This document shows, piece by piece, positions 31,506-64,000 of a DNA stretch of 64,000 bases. The notes under the pieces were generated by a model. It saw nothing but the letters and a program-made list of their open reading frames with translations, did not search any database and was not told where the DNA came from. Where the stretch lies: positions 196,610-260,609 of the forward strand of contig QHSP01000015.1 in assembly GCA_003220495.1 (NCBI GenBank). Direction: 5' to 3'. The first letter of the stretch is position 1. Every line of letters starts with the position of its first letter. The position numbers were made by a program, and so were the translations under genes. Origin of the DNA: Candidatus Rokuibacteriota bacterium (GTDB taxonomy: Bacteria; Methylomirabilota; Methylomirabilia; Rokubacteriales; CSP1-6).

Positions 31506-31523
31506 TCGAATAGGGGAGGGCCT

Positions 31524-35116: not shown

Positions 35117-35180
35117 CGGCGGCAGAATACTCTGACGTAATGCCCGGCGGGGTCGTTGACACGAGAAGAGCTCGCGCCCA

Positions 35181-35208
35181 TTGACACCCGGGAGCCACGC
35201 GATACCAT
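35181..35208 (+). promoter_or_regulatory. Sigma-70-like promoter TTGACA-N16-TACCAT
   Basis: 30 bp upstream of ATG 35238. Conserved with the promoter at 29810. Confidence 0.45.
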
Positions 35209-35237
35209 CCCGCCACACTCACTTTCCGGAGGTCACC

Positions 35238-36872: not shown

Positions 36873-36878
36873 ACGGCC

Positions 36879-43297: not shown

Positions 43298-43540
43298 TCA
43301 GAAGAGGTACCGCGACCACCGCACCAGCAGGTACACGAGCAGCGCGAACAAGATTGCGACCAGCCCGCCGCCGACAACCAGAAGTCGCCGGTAGATGTAC
43401 GCCATCTGCTCTTGTCGAGCGACGGCGCGTTGCTGAAGGTCGAGCGAGCGCTCGGTCACCCGCCGGTACTCGGCGAGATGCTCGCGCTGCGTGTCGCGGA
43501 TCTCTCGCAAGAGCACTCGGACTTCGCCCTCACTGGTCAT
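43298..43540 (-). CDS. Small single-pass membrane protein, hypothetical
   Basis: 80 aa, not Arg-rich. Has a C-terminal TM helix (LVVGGGLVAILFALLVYLLV). Its ATG overlaps the stop of the upstream XDH gene (translational coupling). Confidence 0.45.
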   Translation of the reverse strand: MTSEGEVRVLLREIRDTQREHLAEYRRVTERSLDLQQRAVARQEQMAYIYRRLLVVGGGLVAILFALLVYLLVRWSRYLF

Positions 43541-45846: not shown

Positions 45847-45902
45847 CGCGACATCCTAGCACTGTGGCCCCGCCATGGCACCGTATGGCACAGTGAGAGA
45901 CG

Positions 45903-48562: not shown

Positions 48563-48791
48563 AGACCCTCCTTGCCTCACTTGTGCGCCTGCCGCCCGAC
48601 CATACTGGATTCCTCGAGCGGTGCGAGCCGTGCCGATCCTCCTGCGCGGTGAATCGATCGGCGTGTGGGCGGGCATCGAGGAGCTGGTGGCGTAGTCTCT
48701 CTCATCCGGCGCGCGCCGCCGCTGCCGCGACTAAAGCTGCCGGCGGACTGAGCCACGACCAGTGAGGCGAGTCCCCGCGCGGAACGCCCGC

Positions 48792-50474
48792 TCAGTGCTC
48801 CCGGCCGGCGCGGAGCACGCGCCCGGGAAACGCGCCGGTGTGCTTGCCGTGCTCCAGCACCACCTGGCCGCCGACCACGACGTGGCGTACGCCTTCCGCG
48901 CCCTGCACCCGCCGCGGGGTGCCGGACGGTCCGTCGTGAGTGACCTCGTCCTCCTTGATGCCGATCGACGCGAGGTCGAACACCATCAAGTCGGCCGCCA
49001 GCCCCTCGCGGACCATGCCGCGATCACGCAAGCCCATGATGCGGGCGGGCTGGAACGTGTATCGACGGATCGCGTCCTCGAGCGTCAGCAGCTCGCGGTC
49101 GCGGACCCACTGGCCCAGCACGTAGCTCGACTCGCCGGCGGTGCAGAAGTTCGTGTTCAGGTGAGCGCCGGCATCCGACTGCGTGGGCAGGGCGTGGCCG
49201 CTCTTCACCATGTCGGCGATCTGCGCTTCTTCCTGGTCCGAGCGGGTCATCAGCTGGAACTCGGTGTCGAGCCCTTCCTCGAGCGCCAGGTCGAGCATCA
49301 TATCGGCGACGTGCTTACCGTGCTTCTCGGCGAGCGCCGTCAGGCTCTGGTCGACCAGCCCCTGGTTCTTCGCGAGCTTCACCCGGCGGACGAAGATCGA
49401 GCTCCAGGGGACGAGCCGGCCCGGCACACCCGGCCGCCGCCGCTGAGGCTTCAGGGCCTGGTCCCGCATTTTCGCGCGCCGCTCGGGATCGGCGAGCGCG
49501 GCGAGCCGATCGGGCAGGCGCAGGTGCATCACGATGTCCCACACGTCGAGGTTGTGGAAGAAGGTCGTCTTCTTCAGCGTGAACCTCGGATTGAAGGGGA
49601 TCGCGCGCAGCAGGTTGTAGAGCTGCGCGCCCTCGCGCGAGGCCTTCTCCACGTACGGCCAGGCGTTCGTGTCGAAGCTCAGGAAGAACACCGGGCGGCC
49701 GCTCGTCACGGCCACGTCACGCAAGTGGTCGAGGTCGGCGGGACTCGGCTTGCCGGCGCCCTTCGGCAGGATCTCGATGATCCCGCGGTTGAACTCGCCG
49801 AGCGTGCGGCCGAAGGCCACCCGCTCCTCGTCGGCGGCGAGCCGCGAGGGCACGGGCTGGCCTTGCGGTCCCGCGTGTGTCGGGGAATCGGTCGTGCTCC
49901 AGCCCCAGGCGCCGGCCTCGAGCGACTCGCGCAGCAGCCGCTGCATGTGGGCGATCTCGTCCGGCGTCGCGGCGCGGTCCCAGGCGGCCTGGTCCATCGC
50001 CGAGAGGCGCAGCGGGTTGTGGCCGACCAGCGGCATCAGGTTGAGTCCAAGCCCGATGTCGATCGCGGTCAGGTACTCGTCGAAGTTCTCCCAGTTCCAC
50101 GGCACGACGGACGCCAGCGAGCGCACCGGGATGTCCTCGACGCAGCAGAACGTCGCGAGCATCGCGTCGCGATGCTCGGGCCGCAACGGCGCCAGGGTCA
50201 GGCCGCAGTTGCCCATGAGCACCGTGGTCACGCCGTGCCAGATGGACGACGTGCAGAGCCTGTCCCAGAACGGCTGGGCGTCGTAGTGGGTGTGCGTGTC
50301 GATGATGCCGGGCGCGACGAAGAGCCCCTCGGCGTCGATCGTCGTGGTCGCGGCAGAGCGGATCTTGCCGATCTCGACGATCGTGCCATCCTTGACCGCG
50401 ACGTCGGCGCGATAGCGGGAGAAGCCGGAACCGTCGACGACCATGCCGTTCTTGATGACCAGGTCGTAAGGCAT
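48792..50474 (-). CDS. N-acyl-D-amino-acid deacylase (D-aminoacylase) family amidohydrolase
   Basis: DLVIKNGMVVDGSG...IDTHTHYD metal-binding start of the amidohydrolase fold. 560 aa. GGAGGG ribosome-binding site. Confidence 0.8.
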   Translation of the reverse strand: MPYDLVIKNGMVVDGSGFSRYRADVAVKDGTIVEIGKIRSAATTTIDAEGLFVAPGIIDTHTHYDAQPFWDRLCTSSIWHGVTTVLMGNCGLTLAPLRPEHRDAMLATFCCVEDIPVRSLASVVPWNWENFDEYLTAIDIGLGLNLMPLVGHNPLRLSAMDQAAWDRAATPDEIAHMQRLLRESLEAGAWGWSTTDSPTHAGPQGQPVPSRLAADEERVAFGRTLGEFNRGIIEILPKGAGKPSPADLDHLRDVAVTSGRPVFFLSFDTNAWPYVEKASREGAQLYNLLRAIPFNPRFTLKKTTFFHNLDVWDIVMHLRLPDRLAALADPERRAKMRDQALKPQRRRPGVPGRLVPWSSIFVRRVKLAKNQGLVDQSLTALAEKHGKHVADMMLDLALEEGLDTEFQLMTRSDQEEAQIADMVKSGHALPTQSDAGAHLNTNFCTAGESSYVLGQWVRDRELLTLEDAIRRYTFQPARIMGLRDRGMVREGLAADLMVFDLASIGIKEDEVTHDGPSGTPRRVQGAEGVRHVVVGGQVVLEHGKHTGAFPGRVLRAGREH

Positions 50475-50555
50475 CAGTTCCCTCCGGGGCCGGGCTGGCG
50501 ATGTTCGATTTGCGCGCAATTGTCCCACAGAATTTTCCGCTCCGTCAGGGGTCTC

Positions 50556-51173
50556 TCACCGGGATCGTCGGACCGGCAAGAGGGCCGGCTGGCCGGGATG
50601 GAGCTGCTGGTCGACCGTGTTCAGGATGACGGCCGTCATCGCGTAGGTGCCCATGAGGGCGGCCAGCTCGAGGACTCCGCGCCGGCCGAAGAGCTCGACC
50701 GCGCGCGCGAACGTGGCGGAGCCGAGCTTCTTCCTCCGAAAGAGCTCCCGCCCGAAGGCGATGATGACGGCTTCCTTCTGTCCCGATCGCTGGCCCAGCC
50801 GCGCCAGGGGCTTGCGGCGCTTCACGATCTCGATGATCTTCGCGTCGAGGCCTTCCGCGAGGGCCGCCGGCTCGTGCGCCGTCCATTCGAACTGGTTGTC
50901 GAGCTCGCGGGCGGTCACGAGGATCGCCAGCTCGGTCAGCCGCCGGTCCAGCGCGGTCTCGAATCGCAGGTACTGATTGGCGGCGCGCAGGAATCCGGCG
51001 AGCTTGGGCGAGTGGAGCCAGATACCGCTCGGGCCGCGCAGCCCAACCAGGGTCCGGCTCGCGGGGCTCACGACCGCGTCGTAGTGCTTCTGGCCCTCCT
51101 CGTCGAGCTCGCCGCGCTCGAGGAGCGGCAGGCGCGAGAGGGAAGCCGGGTGTACGTCCCGCGGCAGTCTCAA
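50556..51173 (-). CDS. Carboxymuconolactone decarboxylase (CMD/AhpD-like) family protein
   Basis: 205 aa. AhpD-like helical fold signature region around ELAILVTARELDNQFEW. ATGA overlap with the upstream gene. Confidence 0.7.
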   Translation of the reverse strand: MRLPRDVHPASLSRLPLLERGELDEEGQKHYDAVVSPASRTLVGLRGPSGIWLHSPKLAGFLRAANQYLRFETALDRRLTELAILVTARELDNQFEWTAHEPAALAEGLDAKIIEIVKRRKPLARLGQRSGQKEAVIIAFGRELFRRKKLGSATFARAVELFGRRGVLELAALMGTYAMTAVILNTVDQQLHPGQPALLPVRRSR

Positions 51174-52033
51174 CGCTTGTGAACGTACTTGGTGAGTCGC
51201 TTGCCACCGGCCTCGGCCAGATAGATGTCGCCGACCGAGTCGACCCAGAGACCGTGTCCCGAGGGCGAGTCGAAGCGCGCCAGGACCTTGCCGTGTCGAT
51301 CGAGGATGCTGATCGACGGCCTCAGCTCACTCACGTAGGCCACCTGCTGCGCGTTGAAGTAGATGTCGGTCGGCCGATGGATATCGCGCCACTGGGAGAC
51401 GAACTTCCCGCTCGCGTTGAACACCTGGATGCGGCTGTTCTCCCGGTCGCAGACGTAGACGAATCCCTCCGGGTCGACCCACAGGCTGTGGGGCAGGTGG
51501 AACTCGCCGGGCTCCTGCTTGCCCGGCGTGCCCCACGACGCGAGCAAGGCGCCCTGCGCCGAGAAGCGATGCACGCGGCTGTTGCGGTAGCCGTCCGAGA
51601 CGTAGAGATCGCCCGACGGCGCCGGGACCATCTCGGTGGGCTTGTTGAAGGGCCCGGCCGAGCGCGGCGGCAGCTCGATGTCCTTCGTCGCCCCCGTGTC
51701 CGAGGGCTGGCCGCGCGTGCCGAGCACCATCAGGGGCTTGCCGTCGAGCGTGAACTTCAGGGCGACGTGGTCGTCGCGGTCGGTGAGGTAGATCACGTCG
51801 TTGATGATCGCGATCCCGTGGGGATCCTTGATGGCGCTCGAGCCCCACGAGCCGAGGTAGCTGCCGTCGCGGTCGAACACGATGATCGGCGGATCCTTCC
51901 GCTGGAAGGCGTACACCCGATCGCGCGAGTCGGTCGCCACCGCGCTGACCGGACCGAACGTCCAGCCGACGGGCAGCTTCGCCCACGATTCGTTCAGCTC
52001 GTACTGGTAGCTGCCGCTGCCGACTGTCGTCAT
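51170..52033 (-). CDS. NHL-repeat / six-bladed beta-propeller protein (PAL- or SMP-30-like)
   Basis: Repeated xYVxDxxNxRIxxF-like blades (LYVSDGYRNSRVHRF, VYVCDRENSRIQVF). Start recomputed to MTTVGS with a GGAGGG ribosome-binding site. Confidence 0.7.
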   Translation of the reverse strand: MTTVGSGSYQYELNESWAKLPVGWTFGPVSAVATDSRDRVYAFQRKDPPIIVFDRDGSYLGSWGSSAIKDPHGIAIINDVIYLTDRDDHVALKFTLDGKPLMVLGTRGQPSDTGATKDIELPPRSAGPFNKPTEMVPAPSGDLYVSDGYRNSRVHRFSAQGALLASWGTPGKQEPGEFHLPHSLWVDPEGFVYVCDRENSRIQVFNASGKFVSQWRDIHRPTDIYFNAQQVAYVSELRPSISILDRHGKVLARFDSPSGHGLWVDSVGDIYLAEAGGKRLTKYVHKR

Positions 52034-52163
52034 GAGGCCCTCCTCTGGTCGGGAAAGGGGGTCGCGGTCGCGCCGATCGTGCGCCTTTCGGCCGTCGCGC
52101 GCAACAGGCCCGCCCGGAGGTATGATTCGGTCGCCGCGGATCGAACGAAGGAAGGGAGACCCT

Positions 52164-52805
52164 ATGCCAGGCCACACGGACCTGTTCGAGACCATGAAGA
52201 CCATGCGCGCCATGCGCCGGCTGAAGCCCGACCCGGTCCCTGACGAGCTGATCCGAAAGATTCTCGAGGCCGGCGCGTGCGCGCCCAACGGGGGCAACAC
52301 GCAGCGCTGGCGGTTCCTGGTGATCAAGGACCGGAAGATCAAGCAGGGCGTGCAGGTCTGGTACAAGCGCGCCTTCGACGAGGTCGTCGGGCCCCGCTAC
52401 CTCAAGAGTAATCCGCCGCCCGGCGTCACGCGCGAGCAATACAACCGTCAGCACGCCGCGGTGGAATACCTGACCGATCACTTCCACGAAGCTCCCGTGT
52501 GGATCGTCGCGTGCCTCGAGGAAGGCACGACGGCGCCGACGCGCAGCTCCGGCGCGTCGATCTATCCAGCGGTGCAGAACATGCTGCTGGCGGCTCGCGC
52601 GCTGGGACTCGGCGCCACCTTGACGACGCGGCACCTCCTTTACGAGAAGGAAGCTGAAGCCGCGCTCGGCCTCCCGCCGGGCGTTCACTCGTATGCGATC
52701 CTGCCGATCGGTTACCCCATGGGGAAGTTCGGCCCTGTCGGGCGCGGGCCTCTCAAGGAGATCGTCTTTCAAGACCACTGGGGCACTCCCTACCAGGGCG
52801 TCTGA
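52164..52805 (+). CDS. Nitroreductase-family protein
   Basis: RAMRRLKPDPVPDELIRKILEAGACAPNGGNTQRWRF matches the nitroreductase FMN-binding N-terminal motif. Confidence 0.8.
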   Translation: MPGHTDLFETMKTMRAMRRLKPDPVPDELIRKILEAGACAPNGGNTQRWRFLVIKDRKIKQGVQVWYKRAFDEVVGPRYLKSNPPPGVTREQYNRQHAAVEYLTDHFHEAPVWIVACLEEGTTAPTRSSGASIYPAVQNMLLAARALGLGATLTTRHLLYEKEAEAALGLPPGVHSYAILPIGYPMGKFGPVGRGPLKEIVFQDHWGTPYQGV

Positions 52806-52827
52806 ACGAGAGACGCGGAGGCTGTTT

Positions 52828-53346
52828 ATGGCCATCAAGATGATCCACCACGTGAACGTCCAGATCAGCGACCGCGAGCGGACGCGGGCGTGGTACGAGC
52901 GGGTGCTCGGCGCCGAGTTCCTCGACCGCGGTCCGGCGCTGAACAAGCGACAGCTCCAGCTGAGGCTCGGCAGCGGCGAAATTCACTTCACCGTGACGCC
53001 GCGCCCGGTCATCGTGGCGTCCAGCCACTTCGCGATCGAGATCGATGACTGGGAGGCCACCCTGGCTCATCTCGACCAGCTCGGGATCCAGCACGTCCGA
53101 ACGTCAGCCGCCAGCACCGGGACCGACATCGGCGGCACGGATCCCCGGCAGGGGCGCCGTGAGGACAGCAGCGAGCACTACACCTACATCAAGGATCCCG
53201 ACGGCAACCTGATCGAGCTCGTGAACCATCCGCTGGGCCTGCAGGACTCCCAGGGCCGCAAGGTCGAGATCGCGCACGATCCCAGCGGGCTGCGCTGGGT
53301 CCAGATCCCCGGATTCGTCGAGGCAGAGGCGGCGCGAGGACTATGA
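52828..53346 (+). CDS. VOC-family (glyoxalase/bleomycin-resistance/dioxygenase fold) protein
   Basis: HHVNVQISD ... HFAIEIDD ... DPDGNLIEL paired beta-alpha-beta-beta-beta modules with His/Glu metal ligands. Confidence 0.75.
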   Translation: MAIKMIHHVNVQISDRERTRAWYERVLGAEFLDRGPALNKRQLQLRLGSGEIHFTVTPRPVIVASSHFAIEIDDWEATLAHLDQLGIQHVRTSAASTGTDIGGTDPRQGRREDSSEHYTYIKDPDGNLIELVNHPLGLQDSQGRKVEIAHDPSGLRWVQIPGFVEAEAARGL

Positions 53347-53347
53347 A

Positions 53348-54283
53348 GTGAAGATCGCCACGCCCGACCTGGTGACGAACTCCTACTTCCCGGCGCTCGC
53401 CGCCGAGGAGCTCGGTCTGTATCGCGAGGAAGGGCTCGACGCCCACGTCGAGCTCATGCCCTCGCTCGATGCCGTGAACGGGCTGCGCGACGGCGCCGTG
53501 GACTTCGTGGCCGGCGGCGCGCACACGACGTTGCTCGCGTTCCCGGGCTGGAAGGGCGCGAAGCTCGTCGTCGCGCTCTCCCAGGGCACGCCGTGGCTCC
53601 TGGTCCTGCGCGCGGATCTCGCGGCGCGCCGGGGCGACGTCGCGGCCGTGAAGGGTCTTCGCATCGGCGCCGCGCCGGGGCCCGACCGTGCATTCCTTCG
53701 CCTCCTGCAGGAGGCCGGCGTCGATCCGATCCGCGACGGCGTCAAGATCGCTCCGGTCCCGGGCGGAACCGACCCGGGCGCCTCCTTCGGCGTCACGGCC
53801 GCCGCGGCCCTCGAGCGCGGCGCGGTCGATGGTTTCTGGGCGAATGCGCTCGGGAGCGAGACCGCCGTGCGCCGCGGCGTCGGAAAGATCATCGTGGACG
53901 TGCGGCGAGGCGACGGCCCGCCCGAGGCGGGTCAATATACGTTCGCGGCGCTCTCGACGACGGAAGCTCTGATCGCGCACGAACCCGAACGCGTAGCGGC
54001 GGCGGTGCGCGCGATCGTGCACGCTCAGACCATGCTCCGGGATGATCCGGCGAGGGCGACCGAGGTCGGGCGGCGGCGGTTTCCGCCGGCCGCGGCGGAG
54101 ATCATCGCGGCGGTCGTGGAGCGCGATCTTCCGTTCTACGATCCGACGATCGGCGAGCACGCGGTCTCGGTCATGAACCGCTTCGCCCGCTCGCTCGGCT
54201 TGCTCGCGGCACCCGTTGCCTACGACGACACCGTCGCCACCCGGTTCCGTGACCTCTGGGTCAGTAGAGGTGACAGGCGGTGA
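53348..54283 (+). CDS. NMT1/THI5-like (SsuA/NitT-TauT-type) substrate-binding-fold protein without signal peptide
   Basis: 311 aa with a periplasmic-binding-protein type II fold similar to the SBP at 60569, but starting [14 protein letters not shown] with no export signal. Confidence 0.6.
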
Positions 54284-54446
54284 ATCGGCCGGGCTTCACT
54301 TCCTTGAGGATGCACCGGACTCGGCACCTCGCCGCCCAGCACGATCCGTTGTCGGCGCGCCCCGGGATGTAGCGGCAGCGCCGCCGACAGGAGCGCCTCC
54401 GTATAAGGATGCAACGGCTCCGGGAAGCGGGAAAGGTGCCGATATC

Positions 54447-55859
54447 CTACTCCAAACCGTAGTCGGCCCAGTGGGCGTCGACCCGGTCGAGGTCCTCCTT
54501 TGGAGGTACCGAGCGGGCGGGGAACCGGTGCTTGCGGGTCGCGTCGACGCCGACCTTGGACGAGAGCACGGTCTTGCGCTCGAGCTGGTCCACGTCTTCC
54601 TCGGCGGTCGACGGATCGAGCGCGACGCCCGCGGTGGCCCGGTTCACGTAGAGGTCGTGCTCGGGCTGGACGTGCCAGGACATGGCCCAGAGCACCTGGA
54701 AATAGTCGCGGATGTCGATGTCCTCGTCCACGACGACCACCCACTTGGAGAACGACGGATCGTAGGCCCAGACCGCCCACATCGCCCGCTGGGGCAGGGC
54801 GGGATGCTCGCGGCGCAGCGAGATCGCGAGGAACGCGGCGCCGCCGCCAGCCTCCAGCAGGTGGACGTCGCGCACGGGCAGCCGGAGGTCGCGGCGCAGA
54901 TGCTGGAGCAGCGCCACGTCGCGGCCGGTGCCGCGGATGCAGCTCGACTCGCTCGGCGGCATCTGGCTGAAGAACGCCTGGTAGATCGGGTCGGCGCGAT
55001 GGGTGATCGCGGTCACCTCGAGCACGAAGCTCGGGCCCGACGATCCCATGTAGCCCGTGTACTCGCCGAACGGGCCCTCGTGCTCGCGCACGCCGGGCGG
55101 GACGAAGCCTTCGATGACGATCTCGGCGTGCGCCGGCACCTCCAGATCGTTCGTCTCGCACTTCACGACCTCGAGCGGCTCACCGCGCAAGGCGCCCGCA
55201 ACCCCCAGCTCGTCACCGCGGATCCGCGCGACTGAGGTGAGCGGCACGGGCGGGTCGCAGCCGATCACGACGGCGCAGGGCGTCGGATTGCCCTTCCGCT
55301 CGTTCTTCATGATGTGCGCGTACATGTCGCGCCACGTGGTGCTCAGGAAGAGCCCGAACTTCCGGGGCCCCTTCAGCATGAGGCGGTAGGTGCCCATGTT
55401 GCGCTCGCCGGTCTCGGGATCGTGCGAGATCACGCACGGCCCGGTGACGTACGGCGCCGGGTCCTGGTCGCGCGTCCACAGACAGAGCGGCAGCGCGGTC
55501 GCGTCGATCCGGTCGCCGGTCTGGATCACGTCCTTCACCGGGCCGGTCCTGACGCGCACCGGCGGAATCGGGTGGCTCTGCGCCCGGGCCCATTTGTCGG
55601 CGATCTGATCGACCGTGGTCTCGAGCGCCAGCGCGTAGACCTCCGGCGAGGCGCCCAGGATTCCCGCGACCAGCGGCATCCGATGACCTTTGATGTGCTC
55701 GAACATCACCGCGGGCCGGCGCGCGGGCGGAATTCGCTGAAATACCCGGCGGATGACGGCCGCGACCTCCCAGTTCGGATCAACTTCCTTCTTGACGTGG
55801 TGGAGCTTGCCACGCACTTCGAGCGCGGCCAGGTATTCGCGGAGATCCTTGTAGGCCAT
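54447..55859 (-). CDS. UbiD-family (prFMN-dependent) reversible decarboxylase
   Basis: 470 aa, collinear with UbiD/Fdc/AroY-like enzymes. Start recomputed to [10 protein letters not shown] with an AGGAGG ribosome-binding site. Confidence 0.85.
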
Positions 55860-55875
55860 GTGCGGGCCTCCTTGT

Positions 55876-56811
55876 CTATGGTCGGGGCCGGTACGGGTGC
55901 TGTTCGATCCAGTGCCGCGCGATGTCGATCCGGCGGCAGATCCACACGTGGTCGTGGCGCTCGACATAGTCGAAGAAGCGTGCGAGCGCCGCGGCCCGCC
56001 CCGGCCGACCCATGAGCCGCATGTGCAGGCCGAGCGACATCATCTTCGGCTGATCGGCGCCCTCCGCGTAGAGCACGTCGAACGCGTCTCGCGCGTGGGC
56101 GAGCCAATCATCGCCGGTCGCGAAGCCACCGGGAAGTCCGAACTTCATGTCGTTGACGTCCAGGGTGTAGGGGACGACCAGGTGCGGCTTGCCCGACACG
56201 ACGGTCCAGTACGGCAGATCGTCGTTGTAGGCGTCCGCGTCGTAGAGAAAGCCGCCCTCCTCGACCACGAGACGCCGCGTGTTGGGACTGAGCCGGCCGG
56301 TGTACCAGCCGAGCGGCCGGGTGCCGGTCATGCGCGTCAGGCTCTCGACCGCGCGCCGGATGTGGTCACGCTCGACCTTCTCGCCCACGAACTGGTAGTC
56401 GATCCACTTCCAGCCGTGGCTCACGACCTCGTGGCCGGCCTCGACGATCGCCGCCGCGGCCTCGTGGTGGCGCTCGAGCGCCATCGCCACCGCGAACACG
56501 CTGATCTTGATGCCGTACGAGGCGAACGTGCGCATGAGGCGCCAGAAGCCGACGCGGCTTCCGTATTCGTACATCGACTCGACTTGGAGGTTGCGCACGC
56601 CCTGGAGCGCCGGCAAGCCCACGACTTCTTGCAGGTAGGCCTCGGCTTCCCTGTCCCCGTGCAGGATCGACCGCTCGCCGCCTTCCTCGTAGTTCATGAC
56701 GATCTGGAGGGCCAGGCGCGCGCCGCCGGGCCACTTCGGATCCGGCGGCTTCTTCCCGTATCCGACCAGGTCACGCGGATAGCCCACTCGGAGGGGGGCG
56801 TTGCCCCCCAT
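55876..56811 (-). CDS. Polysaccharide-deacetylase-fold protein, PuuE (allantoinase)-like
   Basis: YPRDLVGYGKKPPDPKWPGGARLALQIVMNYEEGGERSILHGD closely resembles the N-terminus of PuuE-type allantoinases. The first 36 residues of the track ORF are low-complexity, so the start is taken at MGGNAPL. Confidence 0.6.
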   Translation of the reverse strand: MGGNAPLRVGYPRDLVGYGKKPPDPKWPGGARLALQIVMNYEEGGERSILHGDREAEAYLQEVVGLPALQGVRNLQVESMYEYGSRVGFWRLMRTFASYGIKISVFAVAMALERHHEAAAAIVEAGHEVVSHGWKWIDYQFVGEKVERDHIRRAVESLTRMTGTRPLGWYTGRLSPNTRRLVVEEGGFLYDADAYNDDLPYWTVVSGKPHLVVPYTLDVNDMKFGLPGGFATGDDWLAHARDAFDVLYAEGADQPKMMSLGLHMRLMGRPGRAAALARFFDYVERHDHVWICRRIDIARHWIEQHPYRPRP

Positions 56812-56844
56812 CCCCAGTCGGAGGGGGCCTCGACGGCCCCCTCC
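56793..56844 (-). promoter_or_regulatory. Two adjacent GC hairpins in the 5' leader of the PuuE-like gene (GGGGGGC-gtt-GCCCCCC and CGGAGGGGGCC-tcgac-GGCCCCCTCCG)
   Basis: Perfect 7-bp and 11-bp stems. On the mRNA the second stem sequesters a GGAGGGGG Shine-Dalgarno-like run, and the first abuts the AUG. Confidence 0.35.
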
Positions 56845-56915
56845 GAGGCCTCCCCCAGATCGAGTTGCGCCGGCGGAGCCGGCGCTCGAACGCGATCGTC
56901 TTCTCGGGTGGCGGC

Positions 56916-58154
56916 TCATACGCTACCGATGCCGGTGGCGCCCAGGTTGTCGCCGACGTCACGGGCGCCGAACCCCGCGGAGGCGTAGTGGGCCAGGGCC
57001 GCGTCGACACTGGCACCCGCGGTCGCGCGGTAACCTTCACGACGAAGAACGTTCTCGAGGGCCGCCAGACAGAGGAGCACGAACTGACGCTGCGCCGAGT
57101 AGCCCATGGTGCCGATGCGCCAGATCTTGCCCTGCAGCTGGCCGAACGCGGCCCCGATCTCGACACCGAAATCTTCGACGAGCCGGCGCCTGACGCGCAG
57201 CTCGTCGACGCCGTCGGGCACGACGACGGGCGTCAGGAAGGAAAGCCGACGCTCGCGCGGCTCCTTACCGAAGAGCGCGAGCCCCAGGGCGTCGAGGCCG
57301 GCACGGAGCGCATCACCGTGCAATTGGTGTCGCGCGAAGCGGGCCTCGAGGCCTTCCTCGCGGACCGCCCGGAGCGCCTCGCGGAGACCGTAGACCATCG
57401 CGGTCGGCGCCGTGTGGTGGTTGAAGCGCCTGGGGCTCCAGTAGTCGGCGAGCTGGCCGAGGTCCAGATAGTTGCTCCGCACTTTGGTCCGGCGCCCGCG
57501 GATGACGGCGTCGGCCCGCGCGTTGTAGGTGACCGGCGCCAGCCCCGACGGACAGCTCAGACACTTCTGGGTCCCTGCGGTCGCGACGTCGACGTCCCAG
57601 CGGTCGACGGCGACCTCGCACCCGCCCAGGGTCACCACGCAGTCCGCGACCAGGAGCGCGCCGTGGTCGTGGGCCGCCCGTGCGAGGTCGGCGAGCGGCT
57701 GGAGTATCCCGGTCGAGGTCTCGCCGTGAACGACCGCGACCAGCTTCGTCTTTCCAGCTTTCAGCGCAGCCTCGATGGCGGCTGGATCGATCAGTCGCCC
57801 CCACTCGCCGCGCACCACGGTGACCTCGGCGCCACACCGCTCGGCGATCTCGATCAGCAGCAGGCCGAAGCGCCCGCACTCGGCGACGACCACCCGGTCG
57901 CCCGGCTCGATCAGCGAGGTGAGCGCCGCTTCGAGACCTGCGCGCCCCGTGCCGGGCACGGGGAAGGTGCGCGTGTTGGTGGTCTGGAATGCAAAGCGCG
58001 AGAGGTCCATGACGTCGTTCATGATCGCGGTGAACTCCGGGTCGAACTGGCCCAGGAGCGGCGTCGACATCGCGCGCAGGACGCGAGGGTCGGCCATGGA
58101 CGGACCAGGGCCCAGGAGGACCCGCGGACCGGGGAGGAGATCGCCGGGGGACAT
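56916..58154 (-). CDS. Class-V PLP-dependent aminotransferase (alanine/serine/ureidoglycine-glyoxylate aminotransferase family)
   Basis: 412 aa. PGP..M...V..A motif N-terminus, PLP-lysine region (TAGTQKCLSCPSG), similar to AGT/SPT/PucG-type enzymes. Confidence 0.85.
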   Translation of the reverse strand: MSPGDLLPGPRVLLGPGPSMADPRVLRAMSTPLLGQFDPEFTAIMNDVMDLSRFAFQTTNTRTFPVPGTGRAGLEAALTSLIEPGDRVVVAECGRFGLLLIEIAERCGAEVTVVRGEWGRLIDPAAIEAALKAGKTKLVAVVHGETSTGILQPLADLARAAHDHGALLVADCVVTLGGCEVAVDRWDVDVATAGTQKCLSCPSGLAPVTYNARADAVIRGRRTKVRSNYLDLGQLADYWSPRRFNHHTAPTAMVYGLREALRAVREEGLEARFARHQLHGDALRAGLDALGLALFGKEPRERRLSFLTPVVVPDGVDELRVRRRLVEDFGVEIGAAFGQLQGKIWRIGTMGYSAQRQFVLLCLAALENVLRREGYRATAGASVDAALAHYASAGFGARDVGDNLGATGIGSV

Positions 58155-58161
58155 GCCCGGG

Positions 58162-58171
58162 AATTATAATT
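58162..58171. promoter_or_regulatory. AT-rich perfect palindrome AATTATAATT in the 15-bp divergent gap
   Basis: The only AT-only 10-mer in the neighbourhood. It lies between the start of the aminotransferase (minus) and the start of XDH paralog 3 (plus). Confidence 0.35.
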
Positions 58172-60512
58172 GAGCCCCACGGCGGACCACGTGCCCGACA
58201 AATTCACCGGCCGGCCCATCAGGCGCCTCGAGGATCCTCGGCTGCTGCGCGGCCAGGCCCTCTACGTCGACGACCTGCGCGTGCCGGGAGCTCTCCACGT
58301 GGCGTTCGCCCGCAGCATTTATCCCCACGCCACCTTCCAGGTCGCCCCCACCGCGGCGCGGGCCGTTCCGGCGGTCGTCGGCGTGTTCACTGCCGCCGAT
58401 CTCCAGGCCGAGCGCGGCTTCCGCGAGATCCCCGCGGTCATCGATCACCCGGCGCTTCGACCGTGCCGGCAGCTTCCGCTGGCCCGCGACAAGGTTCGTT
58501 ACGTCGGCGAGCCGATCGCCGCCGTCGTCGCCGAGAGCCGGTACGCGGCCCAGGACGGCGTGGCGGCGCTCGGGATCTCGTACGATCCGCTCGCCGCCGT
58601 GCCCGACGCGCACGCGGCCGTCGCTGCCGGCGCGCCGCTCCTGCACGACCGGATCGAGGGCAACGTCGCCGCCGACTTCACCGTGCGGTCGGGCGATGCC
58701 GACGGCGCGTTTCGGCGCGCCGAGGTCGTGACGCGCGGGCGCTACTACGTCCACCGCTACACCGGGATGCCGCTGGAGACGCGCGGCGTCCTGGCCGCGT
58801 ACGACACCGGCACGCAGAGCCTCACGGTCTGGTCATCGACCCAGTGGCCTCACACTCTGCGCGACGCGCTTCGCGACGTCTTCGGGCTCAGCGAGCATCG
58901 GATTCGCGTGATCGCGCCGGACGTGGGCGGTGGCTTCGGCGTGAAGCAGGAGATCTATCCGGAAGAGATCGTGCTCGCGCTGCTGGCGATGCGCCTGGGC
59001 GCGCCGGTGAAATGGATCGAGACGCGTCACGAGCACGTGACGAACACCGCGCACGCGCGCGAGCAGTGGCACGACGTCGAGCTCGCGGCGCGCCGCGACG
59101 GGACGATCGTCGCGATGCGCGCCGAGCTGCTCGCCGACCTCGGCGCCTACACGCGGAGCCTCGGGGTGCTCTGTCCCTCGATCACCGCGGCGAGCTTGCC
59201 GGGGCCCTACCGGATCCGTGACTATACGTGCCGCGTGCGCGCGGCGCTCACGTGCAAGGCGCCGGCGGCCGCGTATCGAGGCGCCGGGCAGCCGGAGGCG
59301 GTGTTCGCGGTCGAGCGCGCCGTGGATCAGCTCGCGCAGGAGCTCGGGATGGATCCCGCCGAAGTCCGCCGGAAGAACTTCATCCGTCGCGACGAGTTCC
59401 CGTGGGAGCTCGGGCTCTCGTCGGCGCAGGTCCCGGTGGTCTACGACAGCGGCGACTACGAAGCGTCGCTCGACGCCGCGCTGACCCTGGCGCGCTACCG
59501 GGAGCGACGTGCCGAGCAAGCCGTTGAGCGCGCCAGGGGTGACCGCGGTCGCCTCGTCGGCGTTGGCATCGCCTCGTACGTGCTGCTCACCGGGCTCGGA
59601 CCCCACGAGGGCGCGGTGCTGCGCGTGGACCCGACCGGCCAGGCGCTGCTCGTCACCGGCGCCTCGCCGCACGGTCAAGGAACCGCCACAGTGCTGGCCC
59701 AGGTGGTCGCCGACGAGCTCGGCCTCGAGCCTCACGACGTCGTCGTCCGGCACGGCGACACCGCGATGATCCCGTTCGGCGTCGGAACCTACGCGAGTCG
59801 CAATGCGGTCGTGGCCGGCAGCGCCGCGCTCGTCGCCGCCCGCGCCGTCGCCGACAAGGCGCGTCGACTAGCCGCGCACCGGCTGGAGGTGGCCGAGGGG
59901 GACCTCGAGCTCGCCGGCGGCGCCGTGCGCGTCGTGGGAGCGCCGCACCGACGGCTATCGCTCGGGGAGATCGCGGCCGCGTGCGCGCCCGGCTCACCGT
60001 TGCCGGAGGGCATGAGCCCAGGCCTCGAAGCCACGCGGTATTTCCTGGCGCCGCGACCAACCTTCGCGAGCGGCGTGCACGTCGCGGTCGTCGCGGTGGA
60101 CCGTGACACCGGCGGTGTCGAGATCGTCGACTACGTCGCCGCGAGCGACGCCGGACGGCTGATCAACCCGCTCATCGTCGAGGGCCAGATCCACGGGGGC
60201 GTCGCCCAGGGTGTCGGCGGCGCCCTGTACGAAGAGCTCGCCTACGACGAGCACGCCCAGCCGCGCGCTCAATCGCTGATGGAATACGTCATGCCCACCG
60301 CTGGCCAGATTCCCGCGATCAAGATCGCCAACCTCGTCACGCCGAGCCCGCTCAACCCGCTCGGCGTGAAGGGCGTCGGTGAGGGCGGTGCCCTGGCGCC
60401 TCCGGCCGCGATCACGGCCGCGGTCGAGGACGCGCTCCGTCCCTTCGGTGCCCACATCGTGGGCACTCCGATCCGGGCCGAGGACGTGCTGCGCCTCATG
60501 CGCCGGTCTTGA
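58170..60512 (+). CDS. Xanthine dehydrogenase/CoxL-family molybdopterin-binding large subunit (paralog 3, AYRGAG-type)
   Basis: 780 aa. GRPIRRLEDPRLLRG hammerhead start and an AAYRGAGQPE active-site loop (form-II, non-CO-oxidising type). TTG at 58170, or an alternative GTG about 58189. Confidence 0.85.
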   Translation: MSPTADHVPDKFTGRPIRRLEDPRLLRGQALYVDDLRVPGALHVAFARSIYPHATFQVAPTAARAVPAVVGVFTAADLQAERGFREIPAVIDHPALRPCRQLPLARDKVRYVGEPIAAVVAESRYAAQDGVAALGISYDPLAAVPDAHAAVAAGAPLLHDRIEGNVAADFTVRSGDADGAFRRAEVVTRGRYYVHRYTGMPLETRGVLAAYDTGTQSLTVWSSTQWPHTLRDALRDVFGLSEHRIRVIAPDVGGGFGVKQEIYPEEIVLALLAMRLGAPVKWIETRHEHVTNTAHAREQWHDVELAARRDGTIVAMRAELLADLGAYTRSLGVLCPSITAASLPGPYRIRDYTCRVRAALTCKAPAAAYRGAGQPEAVFAVERAVDQLAQELGMDPAEVRRKNFIRRDEFPWELGLSSAQVPVVYDSGDYEASLDAALTLARYRERRAEQAVERARGDRGRLVGVGIASYVLLTGLGPHEGAVLRVDPTGQALLVTGASPHGQGTATVLAQVVADELGLEPHDVVVRHGDTAMIPFGVGTYASRNAVVAGSAALVAARAVADKARRLAAHRLEVAEGDLELAGGAVRVVGAPHRRLSLGEIAAACAPGSPLPEGMSPGLEATRYFLAPRPTFASGVHVAVVAVDRDTGGVEIVDYVAASDAGRLINPLIVEGQIHGGVAQGVGGALYEELAYDEHAQPRAQSLMEYVMPTAGQIPAIKIANLVTPSPLNPLGVKGVGEGGALAPPAAITAAVEDALRPFGAHIVGTPIRAEDVLRLMRRS

Positions 60513-60568
60513 CGTCGGCCGTGGCTCGGTCTTAGCTTCCTGGGACAGTCGGCTCAAAGGAGGCGTGC

Positions 60569-61591
60569 ATGTTGACCAGAACCGTGGCGCTCGTCGCCCT
60601 GCTGCTGCTCGCGCTACCGGCGTGGCGCTCGAGCGCCGAGGCGCAGACCAAAGTGAGGTTCGCGCTCGACTGGCAGATCCAGGGCCCGCAGGCCCCGTTC
60701 ATCACCGCCAAGGCGCTCGGCGCATTCGCGGCGCAGGGTCTCGACGTCACGATCGATCGCGGAACCGGCTCGCAGAAGACGATCGAGCAGGTGGCGACCG
60801 GAACCTACGACCTCGGCTACGGCGACATCAACTCGATGATCGAGTACAACGTCAAGAATCCGCAGACGCCGCTGATCGCAGTCGGGATGGTCCTGAACTC
60901 GCCGCCCTTTGCGCTGCTCTCGCTCAAGCGCTACGGGATCCGCGATCCGAAAGACCTCAAGGGCGCCAGCATCGGCGCGCCGGCCGGCGACGCGCCGCGG
61001 CGGCTCTGGCCGATCTTCGCGAAGAACATCGGGCTACCCGCCGACAGCGTGACCTGGACCAACATGGCGCCGCCGCTCCGTGAGCCCGCCCTCGTCAAGG
61101 GCGATGTCAAGGCGATCTCCGGCTTCTACTTCACCGGCTATCTCAACCTGACCGAAAATCTCAAGATCCCCGAGGCGGACGTCGTCGCGTTCAAGTACAG
61201 CGATCACGGCATCGACCTCTACGGCAACGCCGTGGTCGCGCGCGTCGACTGGCTCAAGGCGAACGCGGACACCGTACGTCGCTTCCTCGCCGCGCTCAAC
61301 ACCGGATTCAAGGCGACCCTGAAGGATCCAACCGCGGCCATCGCGCACATCCGAGCGGCCGAGCCGTTGACGAACGAGAGCACCGAGCTCAAGCGTCTGC
61401 AGCTGGCGATCAGCGCGAACATGATCAACGACGAGGTGCGGAGGAACGGCCTCTTGGCCATCGACCCGGCGCGGATGCAGCGCGCGATCGAGCAGGTCGT
61501 CGCCTCGTTCGAGCTCGGGGCGAAGCCCACCGTCGCGCAGGTCTTCACAGGCGCCTATCTGCCGCCCGCCGCCGACCGGAAGCTGGACTGA
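60569..61591 (+). CDS. ABC transporter substrate-binding protein (NitT/TauT, NMT1/SsuA-like), signal peptide
   Basis: MLTRTVALVALLLLALPAWRSSAEAQ signal. 340 aa. AAAGGAGG ribosome-binding site. Confidence 0.8.
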   Translation: MLTRTVALVALLLLALPAWRSSAEAQTKVRFALDWQIQGPQAPFITAKALGAFAAQGLDVTIDRGTGSQKTIEQVATGTYDLGYGDINSMIEYNVKNPQTPLIAVGMVLNSPPFALLSLKRYGIRDPKDLKGASIGAPAGDAPRRLWPIFAKNIGLPADSVTWTNMAPPLREPALVKGDVKAISGFYFTGYLNLTENLKIPEADVVAFKYSDHGIDLYGNAVVARVDWLKANADTVRRFLAALNTGFKATLKDPTAAIAHIRAAEPLTNESTELKRLQLAISANMINDEVRRNGLLAIDPARMQRAIEQVVASFELGAKPTVAQVFTGAYLPPAADRKLD

Positions 61592-61947
61592 ACGACGGCG
61601 TGAAGACAATCTTCGCGGGGGCGCCTCGAAGCCCTGGGCCAGCCGCCCAACCCGGTACGCCAGCCGTTCGAAGCAGTGGGGGGGCTTGGGGGAGGAGCGG
61701 CGCTGCGCTCCCCCCCATGTACGTCGCCTCGTTCGAGCTCGGGGCGAAGCCCACCGTCGCACCGGTCTTCACAGGTGCCTATCTGCCGCCCGCCGCCGAC
61801 CGGAAGCTGGACTTGAACGACGGCGTGAAGACAATCTTCGCGGGGGCGCCTCGAAGCCCTGGGCCAGCCGCCCAACCCGGTACGCCGGCCGTTCGAAGCG
61901 GTGGGGGGGCTTGGGGGAGGAGCGGCGCTGCGCTCCCCCCCATGTAC
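61499..61947. repeat. Tandem direct duplication, 2 x about 224 bp (about 97 % identical)
   Basis: Unit 1 (61499-61722) holds the last 30 codons of the SBP gene, its TGA stop, and two GC-rich hairpins. Unit 2 (61723-61947) repeats it with 6 substitutions and a 1-bp insertion (CTGAAC to CTTGAAC) that removes the stop. Confidence 0.8.
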
Positions 61948-61949
61948 AT

Positions 61950-62759
61950 CTGAACCCTCCGGGCGCCCAAACGGCCGTCGCGATTCGCGACGTCTCCTAC
62001 GACTACGTCACCAACGGCCGCGTGACCCGCGCGCTCGCCCGCGTCTCCCTCGAGATCGAGCGCGGGACGACCGTGGCGTTCGTGGGGCCGAGCGGCTGCG
62101 GCAAGTCCACGTTGCTCAAGCTGATCGCGGGGCTCGTGCGACCGACCGAGGGCGCGATTGCCGTCGACGGGCTCACGGTCGCCGGCCCCCTGAAGAACGT
62201 CGGGATGGCGTTTCAGAACCCCGTGCTGCTGCCCTGGCGCACCGTCCTCGACAACCTCTTGCTGCCGCTCGAGATCCTCCGCGAGAACCAGGATCCACGC
62301 GCGCCGGCCCGCGCGCTCTGGGGCGAGCGCGCGAGCGCGCTGCTCGGCACCGTCGGGCTCGCGGGCGCCGAGCACCGTCAGCCCCGCGAGCTCTCCGGCG
62401 GGATGCGCCAGCGCGTGAGCCTCTGCCGGGCGCTCATCCACGAGCCGGCGCTGCTGCTCCTCGACGAGCCGTTCGCCTCGCTGGACGCGTTCACGCGAGA
62501 AGAAATGTGGGAGCTTCACCAGCAGCTTCGGCTGCAGCGCGAGTTCACGGGGGTGCTGGTGACTCACGACCTCCGCGAGGCAGTGTTCCTCGCCCAGACC
62601 ATCTACGTGATGTCGGCGAGCCCCGGGCGCATCGCCCACGTCCACCGGGTGAGCCTCCGGGCGCCGCGAACCCTGGAGCAGCTCTACAGTGCCGAGGCGA
62701 CCGCGCTCATCCGGGACATGCGCGAGCAGATCCGCCCGAGCCGGCGGGCCGTGGCGTGA
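61950..62759 (+). CDS. ABC transporter ATP-binding protein (NitT/TauT family)
   Basis: Walker A GPSGCGKST, Q-loop, signature LSGGMRQR, Walker B LLLLDEP. There is no ATG/GTG start at the expected distance. Candidate starts are CTG 61950 or ATT 61983, immediately after the duplication. Confidence 0.75.
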   Translation: MNPPGAQTAVAIRDVSYDYVTNGRVTRALARVSLEIERGTTVAFVGPSGCGKSTLLKLIAGLVRPTEGAIAVDGLTVAGPLKNVGMAFQNPVLLPWRTVLDNLLLPLEILRENQDPRAPARALWGERASALLGTVGLAGAEHRQPRELSGGMRQRVSLCRALIHEPALLLLDEPFASLDAFTREEMWELHQQLRLQREFTGVLVTHDLREAVFLAQTIYVMSASPGRIAHVHRVSLRAPRTLEQLYSAEATALIRDMREQIRPSRRAVA

Positions 62760-63511
62760 GCCCGCACCTGCGCCGGCTCGTCCTGCCGCTCGTGGTCTTT
62801 GGGGGCCTGGTGCTCGTCTGGGAGATGGCCGTGCCGGCGCTCAGGATCCAGCAGATCGTGCTCCCAGCGCCGAGTGGGGTGGTGCGAACCATGGTGCAGA
62901 CGGCCGGGCCGATCGCGTTTCACGCCCGGCACACGCTCGTGACGACGTTGATCGGCTTCGCGGCGGCGGTCGGCCTCGGGCTCTTGCTGGGCTTCCTCAT
63001 CGGCGCCTCGGCGACGGCGAACGACGCGCTCTATCCGCTGCTGGTCGGCTTCAACAGCATCCCGAAGGCGGCGGTGGTGCCGATGCTCGTGATGTGGTTC
63101 GGCATCGGCGCCGTGCCGGCGGTGCTCACCGCGTTCCTGCTGGCGTTCTTTCCCGTCGCGGTCAACGTCGCCCTCGGGCTCGCGACGCTCGAGGCCGAGC
63201 TGCGCGACGTGCTGCGGGTCCTCGGGGCGTCGCGGTGGCAGGTCTTCCGAAAGGTCGGCGTCCCGAGAACGATGCCGCTCTTTTTTGCTTCGCTCAAGGT
63301 CGCGGTCTCTTCGGCGTTCGTGGGCTCGGTGATCTCCGAGACGGTCGCGTCGAACGCCGGAATCGGCTATTTGATGGCGGTGGCGGCGTCGGACTTCAAC
63401 ACGCGGCTCGCCTTCGGCGGCCTGTTCGTGCTGGCCGCGATGGGCGTAGCGCTCTACGGGGTCTTCGCGGCCATCGAACGACGCATAACGGCCTGGGCTT
63501 ACGCGGAGTAG
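62756..63511 (+). CDS. ABC transporter permease (NitT/TauT/SsuC-like)
   Basis: 251 aa. GTG start overlaps the ATPase stop (GTGA). 6 TM segments and an EAA-like loop region. Confidence 0.85.
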   Translation: MSPHLRRLVLPLVVFGGLVLVWEMAVPALRIQQIVLPAPSGVVRTMVQTAGPIAFHARHTLVTTLIGFAAAVGLGLLLGFLIGASATANDALYPLLVGFNSIPKAAVVPMLVMWFGIGAVPAVLTAFLLAFFPVAVNVALGLATLEAELRDVLRVLGASRWQVFRKVGVPRTMPLFFASLKVAVSSAFVGSVISETVASNAGIGYLMAVAASDFNTRLAFGGLFVLAAMGVALYGVFAAIERRITAWAYAE

Positions 63512-63515
63512 GGTA

Positions 63516-64000
63516 GTGGACACCTTGATCCTCGACTGGCTGAACATCGGCCTTCGCTGGGTGCACCTGATCGCGGGGATCGGGTGGATCGGCACCTCGC
63601 TCTACTTCATGTGGCTCGACGCCGCGTTGATCCGCGACGACCCGCCGCGAGGCGACGTCGAGGGTCACACGTGGCTGCTCCACAGCGGCGGGTTCTACCT
63701 GGTCGAGCGGCGCAGGCTGCCGCCGGGGCAGCTGCCGTCGCCGATCCACTGGTTCAAGTGGGAAGCCGCGATGACGTGGCTGACCGGCTTCCCGCTCCTG
63801 GTGCTCGTCTACTACCTGACGCGGGGCGTGTACCTCGTCGATCCCTCGGTGTCCTCGATCACGCCGGGCCAGGCGGTCGCGCTCGGGATCGGGCTCCTGA
63901 TCGTCGGCTGGGCCGGCTACGACCTCCTGTGGAGCTCACCGCTCGCGCGCGGCTCCGGCCTCGCCGCCGCGCTCGTTTCCTGGGTGCTCCTGCTCGCGGT
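63516..64000 (+). CDS. PuuD/urate-hydroxylase-like membrane protein (Urate_ox_N-like domain), 3'-truncated by the window edge
   Basis: WLNIGLRWVHLIAGIGWIGTSLYFMWLD resembles the conserved N-terminal membrane-domain motif of PuuD-type proteins. GTG start with a GGAG ribosome-binding site 4 bp after the permease stop. Runs off the window end. Confidence 0.5.
   Translation, partial: MDTLILDWLNIGLRWVHLIAGIGWIGTSLYFMWLDAALIRDDPPRGDVEGHTWLLHSGGFYLVERRRLPPGQLPSPIHWFKWEAAMTWLTGFPLLVLVYYLTRGVYLVDPSVSSITPGQAVALGIGLLIVGWAGYDLLWSSPLARGSGLAAALVSWVLLLA

Follow-up and report, generated by a model that had tools for sequence, protein, structure and literature searches.

A probable PuuD-type urate-utilisation island, with an orphan CoxL-type subunit and a flanking UbiD-family decarboxylase gene, in uncultured Rokubacteria

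The window that we analysed, 64,000 nucleotides of a Candidatus Rokuibacteriota contig (QHSP01000015.1), carries at its right-hand end two divergent groups of genes whose products recall purine and ureide breakdown. We consider it likely that positions 55876-64000, together with about 2 kb beyond the window, make up a PuuD-type urate-utilisation island of this phylum, which a UbiD-family decarboxylase gene and an NMT1-like gene merely flank. The window is approximately 70% G+C, so lists of its open reading frames (ORFs) are crowded with spurious frames; genes were picked by the G+C content of third codon positions (GC3) and then checked against Pfam and NCBIfam. On the minus strand lie genes for a UbiD-family decarboxylase that would use prenylated flavin mononucleotide (prFMN; 54447-55859), for the metal-independent allantoinase PuuE (55876-56811; the longest ORF, to 56919, overlaps the stop codon of the next gene) and for a class-V aminotransferase of the PucG/HpxJ type (56916-58154). 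A putative divergent control region, read from the sequence (58155-58190), leads into a plus-strand series: an orphan form-II CoxL-type molybdenum large subunit (58170-60512; the gene callers' start is 58191), an NMT1/ThiY-fold substrate-binding protein (60569-61591), an ABC transporter ATPase (61911-62759; the start is uncertain, at 61911 by the gene call in contig L001 or at 61974), a NitT/TauT-type ABC permease (62756-63511), and the first 161 codons of puuD (63516-64000), which is cut by the window end. Further to the left, on the plus strand, an NMT1-like protein without a signal peptide is encoded (53348-54283; weak Pfam matches to NMT1/NMT1_2, 32 bits). An original prediction, made from the DNA letters and their translations, had named these families, and all are present in GC3-supported ORFs at approximately the positions it gave.

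What lies past base 64000 was read from two soil-metagenome contigs, L001 and L002 (we cite loci and contigs by L numbers), which were found by exact look-up of the substrate-binding protein. They are 99.7-99.9% identical to window positions 50569-64000 in nucleotide alignment and extend beyond them: there, both carry full-length PuuD and then OHCU decarboxylase and 5-hydroxyisourate (HIU) hydrolase, followed on the opposite strand by a MOSC-domain gene. The PuuD of L002 has 403 residues and the whole DUF989/Urate_ox_N domain, of which the window fragment covers profile positions 2-156 (180.9 bits). PuuD proteins have a C-terminal cytochrome c domain with an invariant CXXCH and a distal Met (PMC4562309); in L002 these are CASCH and the Met in NMPLANKTGM, both in the region beyond the window end. 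The OHCU decarboxylase of L002 scores 212.4 against TIGR03164 (cut-off 96.25), and its HIU hydrolase scores 127.4 against TIGR02962 (cut-off 87.45). The original prediction had called the cluster non-canonical, largely because these two enzymes seemed to be missing; their absence is an artefact of the window edge, since both are encoded directly after base 64000, and on this ground the label is not supported. As a side point, the HIU hydrolase gene is called at 79 residues in L001 (in the region 14591-16891) and at 123 residues in L002, and an rve-family integrase gene just past the MOSC gene in L001 suggests insertion-sequence activity at the island edge.

The window's PuuE matches TIGR03212 over its full length (positions 1-297 of 297; 467.6 bits, cut-off 424.6), and residues 8-308 match P. 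fluorescens PuuE (3cl6) with 452.7 bits and E = 7e-135. Chitin and peptidoglycan deacetylases reach at most 73 bits, so that a choice which the original prediction had left to profile models falls to the allantoinase. By these matches PuuE is predicted to be a bona fide allantoinase and, counting the genes beyond the window, the predicted set of enzymes leading from urate through allantoin to allantoate is canonical and complete.

The aminotransferase (Pfam Aminotran_5) has as its best solved relative B. subtilis PucG (3isl; 415.6 bits, approximately 57% identity), followed by the ureidoglycine-glyoxylate aminotransferase HpxJ of K. pneumoniae (3nnk; 377.4 bits, approximately 50% identity). 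AGT/SPT enzymes score no more than 310 bits, which places the protein closest to PucG/HpxJ, another profile comparison that had been proposed earlier. The lysine that holds pyridoxal phosphate is conserved, in GTQKCLS; the best NCBIfam scores (BhcA, pyridoxamine-pyruvate transaminase) are far below cut-off, and no family-specific model matched. Among PuuE loci of GTDB species, such an aminotransferase adjoins PuuE in six from Rokubacteria. Its probable reaction, judged from these relatives, is (S)-ureidoglycine + glyoxylate to oxalurate + glycine. The ORFs scanned in the window (those with GC3 support and at least 80 codons, a few gaps of about 1 kb being left unscanned) and the gene calls of L001 and L002 contained no member of the Peptidase_M20, allantoicase or ureidoglycolate lyase families; here the original prediction, that allantoate-degrading and ureidoglycolate enzymes are missing from the window, was accurate.

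The order of the operons recurs in the Rokubacteria loci L019 and L029 and in L179. L019 belongs to the metagenome-assembled genome (MAG) 'Candidatus Rokuibacteriota bacterium isolate AR27', the closest GTDB genome, and is syntenic with window positions 48152-64000 at approximately 86% nucleotide identity. L029, from another Rokubacteria MAG, has HIU hydrolase, OHCU decarboxylase, PuuD, permease, ATPase, substrate-binding protein and CoxL, with a divergent aminotransferase-PuuE pair: the order is that of the window, at 68-88% identity, and UbiD is not there. L179 (CoxL-like protein, 74% identity) holds a deaminase, CoxL, ATPase, permease, PuuD, OHCU decarboxylase and HIU hydrolase, also without UbiD. 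Contexts of such foreign loci were taken from tblastn searches with the window's proteins and from the collection's gene calls; GC3 gene calling on foreign loci is rough, with spurious long ORFs in L029. The earlier recognition of PuuE (TIGR03212, 3cl6), of a PucG-like aminotransferase (3isl, 3nnk) and of PuuD (Urate_ox_N, CXXCH) is borne out, and the existence of a purine/ureide catabolic cluster is supported by the curated model scores and the conserved gene order.

The importer encoded between the CoxL-like gene and puuD is of the NitT/TauT family, with Pfam matches to NMT1 (109.7 bits), ABC_tran (119.7 bits) and BPD_transp_1 (88.6 bits); the substrate-binding protein begins with a signal-like hydrophobic segment. 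The best NCBIfam matches of the permease (SaoP, TauC, SsuC) and of the ATPase (TauB, NtrCD, SaoA) all lie below their equivalog cut-offs, and so these models do not make sulfonate or nitrate the substrate. Solved relatives of the substrate-binding protein are distant only: the pyrimidine-binding proteins THI5 and ThiY. Orthologues of the permease (54-62% identity) occur in the alphaproteobacterial purine clusters L037, L040, L042, L093 and L096, and those of the substrate-binding protein (42-48%) in alphaproteobacterial PuuE/XDH clusters (XDH, xanthine dehydrogenase). In loci of Caenispirillum and other Alphaproteobacteria, orthologues of all three components (42-62%) accompany PuuE or XDH genes, which makes the importer a recurrent component of purine clusters. 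Its ligand is probably a purine or a ureide, to judge from this company.

The molybdenum subunit is where the locus departs from known purine clusters. It contains three MoCoBD/hammerhead Pfam domains, and its best NCBIfam scores are 710 for carbon-monoxide dehydrogenase (CODH) group 5 (cut-off 950) and 683 for the glyceraldehyde dehydrogenase alpha subunit (cut-off 790). XDH models, whose cut-offs span 780-916, give 383.6 (XdhA, 780), 320.6 (pucD, 783.65) and 228.1 (xdhB, 849.5). The best solved relatives are M. smegmatis CoxL (8uem), KdhL (7dqx) and Qor (1t3q), at 451-558 bits, with only 137 bits for R. capsulatus XDH. We aligned the protein with XdhB from proteobacterial PuuE loci, as an independent check, and with a bovine fragment that we take to be the reference XDH sequence: positions E802, R880, F914 and F1009 of XDH are Q, I, A and L/gap here, the catalytic Glu (E1261) being kept, and the XdhB proteins of L037 and L038 hold all five residues. 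A canonical XDH was rejected on the replacement of the four substrate-binding residues and on scores far below the XDH cut-offs; at 228-384 bits, these agree with the original prediction, which had not seen a canonical XDH in this enzyme. Form-I CoxL was also rejected: TIGR02416 gives 590 against a cut-off of 991, and the loop AAAYRGAGQPE is without the copper-binding Cys that form I has in AYRCSFR, so the protein is not a form-I CODH. With form-II CoxL, Qor and Kdh enzymes (7dqx is 6-hydroxypseudooxynicotine dehydrogenase), which are its best matches, it has in common the active-site loop AYRGAG and the catalytic Glu. The genes of those enzymes come with partners for iron-sulfur (FeS) and flavin (FAD) subunits, whereas the window gene is an orphan with a signature of its own and a linkage to purine genes: no 2Fe-2S (Fer2_2) or FAD (FAD_binding_5) subunit gene was found in GC3-supported ORFs of the 64-kb window. 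The signature consists of the motifs GGGFGVKQ, LCPS[I/L]TA and AAAYRGAGQPE, which are essentially invariant in 14 purine-linked homologues. The window also holds two further orphan CoxL paralogues, both on the minus strand and in unrelated contexts (23695-26010 and 43537-45855), which differ in these motifs.

Orthologues of the CoxL-like subunit, at 66-88% identity, adjoin genes for PuuD, OHCU decarboxylase, HIU hydrolase, aminotransferase, amidohydrolase and deaminases, and this linkage spans Rokubacteria, one Chloroflexota MAG and two unassigned contigs. In the Chloroflexota locus (L180, 67%), a transthyretin-like gene and genes for an adenine deaminase, an amidohydrolase and a class-V aminotransferase are close to it. 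In L181 (66%), CoxL is followed by aminotransferase, amidohydrolase, transthyretin and another amidohydrolase, in that order. The adjacency of CoxL and PuuD persists where the transporter is missing (L119, L148) and where aminotransferase-PuuE is missing (L162 and others). No canonical XDH was seen in any Rokubacteria locus that we examined, and our literature search found no link between form-II CoxL and purine catabolism.

We turn now to UbiD, for which the original prediction had proposed a decarboxylation step in a variant pathway. The protein has all three UbiD domains (PF20695, PF01977, PF20696) and scores 287.5 bits against TIGR00148 (cut-off 244.85). Its nearest solved relative is HmfF (6h6x; 264 bits, approximately 42% identity), with which its catalytic EGPFGEY and the Arg of an RNxxxxRL motif align; these E-x4-E and Arg motifs are common to both proteins (HmfF, PDB 6h6v/6h6x). 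Furan specificity in HmfF is conferred by a His, H296/297 (PMC7976604), which in the window's UbiD is Ser. No hmf genes lie nearby, and, with the specificity His absent, assignment as HmfF (2,5-furandicarboxylate decarboxylase) was rejected. A quinone role was considered, as one orthologue (81%) precedes a YceI gene; its scores fall far short of the cut-offs for the E. coli-type UbiD and SCO4490 menaquinone models, and none of the close orthologues was seen to have UbiA as a neighbour. UbiD as a stand-in for OHCU decarboxylase was rejected because the canonical enzyme is present; moreover, by the UbiD mechanism, the carboxyl-bearing carbon of OHCU is sp3 and unsuited to prFMN chemistry. There is no ubiX in the 64-kb window, just as the original prediction had it. 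Compared with L019, the gene shows 117 synonymous and 7 nonsynonymous codon differences, the lowest ratio in the region: UbiD is under by far the strongest purifying selection in the neighbourhood.

The genomic distribution of UbiD does not follow that of the purine genes. Of 80 PuuE loci in GTDB species, L019 alone has UbiD within 10 kb. The genes that follow puuE in other Rokubacteria are mutually unrelated (Calx-beta, citrate synthase, Amidohydro_2, cupin, SBP_bac_5), by which we also rejected the idea that some other conserved enzyme occupies this slot. Six contexts of UbiD homologues at 55-87% identity (four of them at 73-87%), sampled from long contigs, contained no purine genes. Orthologues at 73-94% identity are often in unrelated contexts, some beside ubiX: a ubiX homologue precedes the UbiD orthologue (84-88%) by 1-6 kb in L149 (46-699), L171 (4483-5070) and L172 (4544-5203). 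In L171, this ubiX follows genes for an XDH-family molybdenum subunit, a 2Fe-2S protein and a flavoprotein.

Another set of observations came from metagenome contigs, where 80 UbiD loci were classified by hand and the upstream neighbour was visible in 69. That neighbour is PuuE in 26 loci (directly adjacent in 25, and across a gap of about 2.5 kb in L111), the aminotransferase without PuuE in five, the MOSC gene directly in four, and a divergently adjacent CoxL-PuuD in ten; the remaining 24 have no island gene upstream. Nucleotide alignments resolve these arrangements into nested deletions of one ancestral layout. L103 and L105 show MOSC, a 170-nucleotide scar (5712-5880) and an intact UbiD (99% amino-acid identity), then NMT1-like, glyoxalase, nitroreductase, NHL and CMD genes; the scar consists of the divergent spacer plus the first approximately 134 nucleotides of the aminotransferase gene. 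The entire HIU-to-CoxL operon and most of aminotransferase-PuuE have been lost there. In L162, the divergent spacer (5986-6001) is fused straight to UbiD. It appears that the spacer was kept as UbiD's promoter in such deletion lineages. L143 has the backbone genes for a cyclase, a binding protein, a thiamine-pyrophosphate enzyme and UbiD, with neither island nor scar. An extra SBP_bac_5-family gene stands between UbiD and the NMT1-like gene in L019 (12338-14015, approximately 54% identical to window 31506-33113) and in many metagenome contigs; the corresponding interval of the window (54284-54446) is without it.

Our reading is that UbiD belongs to the conserved chromosomal backbone, that it abuts the island without taking any step in purine breakdown, and that its probable co-transcription with puuE is a by-product of position. 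The predicted UbiD-type decarboxylation is accordingly unsupported: the gene accompanies one PuuE locus in 80, is absent from L029, remains intact in L103 and L105 after the island has gone, and has orthologues in unrelated or ubiX-containing contexts. The gene-order comparison that had been suggested as a check likewise shows no conservation of UbiD with purine genes (1 of 80 PuuE loci, 0 of 6 homologue contexts). The cytoplasmic NMT1-like gene is also backbone rather than island. Its start (53348) overlaps the stop of a glyoxalase gene, it is the last gene of a convergent nitroreductase-glyoxalase-NMT1 operon, and it persists together with that operon in L105, L118 and L124, where the island is wholly or partly missing. 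Its earlier inclusion as a cluster member fails on this evidence, and a cluster boundary at 53348 is too wide, since this gene and UbiD form a conserved flank outside the purine island.

Bearing in mind the two operons and the genes beyond the window, we hypothesize the following sequence of events. The NMT1-type ABC importer of the plus-strand operon would take in a purine or ureide, and the CoxL-type molybdenum hydroxylase, going by its conserved linkage, would probably make urate or a urate-like oxopurine. The next steps are predicted from curated family assignments: PuuD would oxidise urate to 5-hydroxyisourate and pass the electrons to its cytochrome c domain, HIU hydrolase and OHCU decarboxylase would carry the product on to (S)-allantoin, and PuuE, from the minus-strand operon, would open allantoin to allantoate. 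An allantoate amidohydrolase encoded elsewhere would presumably yield ureidoglycine, from which, with glyoxylate, the PucG-type aminotransferase would form oxalurate and glycine. UbiD would be read through from the island promoter in this lineage, outside purine breakdown.

The step that admits the widest choice of readings is the one given to the CoxL-like enzyme. From its genomic context, a purine hydroxylase feeding PuuD would be the most economical explanation. We tentatively extend this to a wider proposal, to which we give somewhat less than even weight: that orphan CoxL-type subunits with the three-motif signature form an uncharacterised orthologous group beside urate-oxidation genes and serve as purine hydroxylases (forming urate from xanthine, hypoxanthine or a related purine) in place of XDH, with a different pocket and no dedicated FeS/FAD genes. 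It seems to us unlikely that the island is a urate/allantoin module in which this subunit has a non-purine function, for example as a hydroxylase of aldehydes or other N-heterocycles that travels with the operon, canonical XDH being encoded elsewhere. Such a function would sit well with the loss of E802, R880, F914 and F1009, with scores far below every XDH model, with the lack of FeS/FAD partners nearby and with the unrelated contexts of the window's other two orphan CoxL paralogues. It is opposed by the way in which signature-bearing orthologues (66-88%) head or adjoin clusters of PuuD, OHCU decarboxylase, HIU hydrolase, aminotransferase, amidohydrolase or adenine deaminase across lineages, by a CoxL-PuuD pair that stays together where the transporter or aminotransferase-PuuE has gone (L119, L148, L162), and by the absence of canonical XDH from the Rokubacteria loci examined.

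The variant pathway put forward in the original prediction, for a purine, pyrimidine or pyridine, would have UbiD decarboxylate a heteroaromatic carboxylate and the CoxL-like enzyme and PuuD process the product. This we regard as very improbable, even though HmfF, the nearest characterised relative of UbiD, acts on a heteroaromatic dicarboxylate, a 59% UbiD homologue (L009) has XDH-family, Amidohydro_2 and further UbiD genes around it, and UbiD seems to share a transcript with the aminotransferase and puuE genes and stays beside CoxL-PuuD or the aminotransferase in several rearranged lineages. With canonical HIU hydrolase and OHCU decarboxylase present, the pathway has no gap for UbiD to fill; UbiD is also missing from the syntenic loci L029 and L179 and from all but one of the 80 PuuE loci, is retained after deletion of the island, and has close orthologues in unrelated contexts, while nested deletions of one ancestral layout explain its arrangements with the island. 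A later recruitment of UbiD into the purine pathway, confined to the window's lineage, is in our view very improbable. The chance that unrelated genes which merely recall purine metabolism have come to lie side by side is negligible: many catabolic and transport genes with no relation to one another are indeed mixed together in the surrounding 64 kb, but curated models assign four enzymes to consecutive steps of one pathway, and the operon order is conserved in L019, L029 and L179, with proteins 76-88% identical, so that synteny and model scores have already refuted it. Several points do weigh against the urate-utilisation island with UbiD as a bystander. UbiD has a ribosome-binding site of its own in the 16-nucleotide gap after puuE, no terminator intervenes, and in this lineage it is probably co-expressed with the purine genes. 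In L159, L162-L165, L168 and L169, UbiD (83%) stands divergently next to CoxL-PuuD with nothing in between; a linkage that outlasts several rearrangements could reflect function, not descent. Context is also all that speaks for the role of the CoxL-like enzyme, whose FeS/FAD partner subunits are not encoded nearby, and for the ligand of the transporter, and the lower pathway is assumed, as the window contains neither an allantoate amidohydrolase or allantoicase nor a ureidoglycolate enzyme.

The closest known systems are the PuuD-type clusters of Proteobacteria (Agrobacterium fabrum, Pseudomonas puu; Doniselli et al. 2015, PMC4562309), which likewise group PuuD (DUF989 + cytochrome c), HIU hydrolase, OHCU decarboxylase and PuuE; several alphaproteobacterial versions (L037, L040, L042) share a homologous NMT1-type ABC importer with the window. 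In contrast to them, the window has an orphan form-II CoxL-type subunit in the position of XdhAB, pairs a PucG-type aminotransferase with PuuE, is without allantoicase and ureidoglycolate lyase, and comes from an uncultured Rokubacteria host. The aminotransferase recalls the B. subtilis puc and Klebsiella hpx systems and implies their oxalurate branch, whereas the allantoate amidohydrolase that supplies their ureidoglycine (PucF/HpxK) is not in the window. For urate oxidase the island has PuuD in place of PucL or HpxO, and for allantoinase it has PuuE, the same type as Klebsiella HpxB, in place of PucH. In short, the pathway is ordinary and the host unusual; one part, the CoxL-type subunit, is non-canonical, and one neighbour, UbiD, is misleading.

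Our literature search found no link of UbiD to allantoinase, urate or purine catabolism, or of Rokubacteria to purine. By gene content, members of this uncultured soil phylum would be able to use urate or allantoin; the capacity was apparently gained and lost among related lineages as an island of approximately 13 kb, which bears on nitrogen turnover in soil. The UbiD beside the island should not be annotated as a purine-pathway enzyme. The CoxL-like molybdenum subunit is the sole lead worth following: such proteins are routinely annotated in metagenomes as 'carbon-monoxide dehydrogenase large subunit', and the purine linkage suggests another function, one that, if true, affects surveys of CO oxidisers as well as the reconstruction of purine pathways.

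As to how the two operons may be expressed, the very short divergent spacer contains, in a genome of 70% G+C, the perfect palindrome AATTATAATT (58162-58171), in which each strand reads TATAAT. AATTATAATT would provide one -10 box per strand, and the aminotransferase mRNA would be leaderless or nearly so. A scan for consensus promoters, which needs a -35 box, and for terminators gave nothing above chance and did not detect AATTATAATT; we infer that the spacer with AATTATAATT drives both operons. UbiD begins 16 nucleotides after the puuE stop, with an AAGGAGG ribosome-binding site in the gap, and the terminator scan found none between the two genes: in the window's lineage, UbiD is probably co-transcribed, or read through, from the aminotransferase-puuE transcript.

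A tandem duplication of 225 nucleotides occupies 61498-61947 (Tandem Repeats Finder: period 225, 2.0 copies, 97% matches) and takes in roughly the final 95 nucleotides of the gene for the substrate-binding protein together with the spacer that follows. There is a single copy in L001 and L002, there are two in L005, and the spacer of L003 is longer still, so the copy number is polymorphic between populations. Elsewhere in the window, a G+C-rich repeat of approximately 45 nucleotides with the core CGCCTCGGCCGGCGGGGCCCCAGCCCCGCGACGGCC occurs in both orientations at gene ends (575-613, 5488-5533, 9082-9128, 11704-11748 and 31545-31588); it is found twice more in the AR27 locus L019 and resembles a REP- or MITE-type element. 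The window also encodes three MetE-like (Meth_synt_2) paralogues (7872-9146, 13850-14923 and 36873-38048) and four SBP_bac_5 binding proteins (14924-16738, the region 29814-33113, and 35160-36872), a scatter in keeping with the catabolic and transport repertoire of Rokubacteria, which is rich in paralogues.

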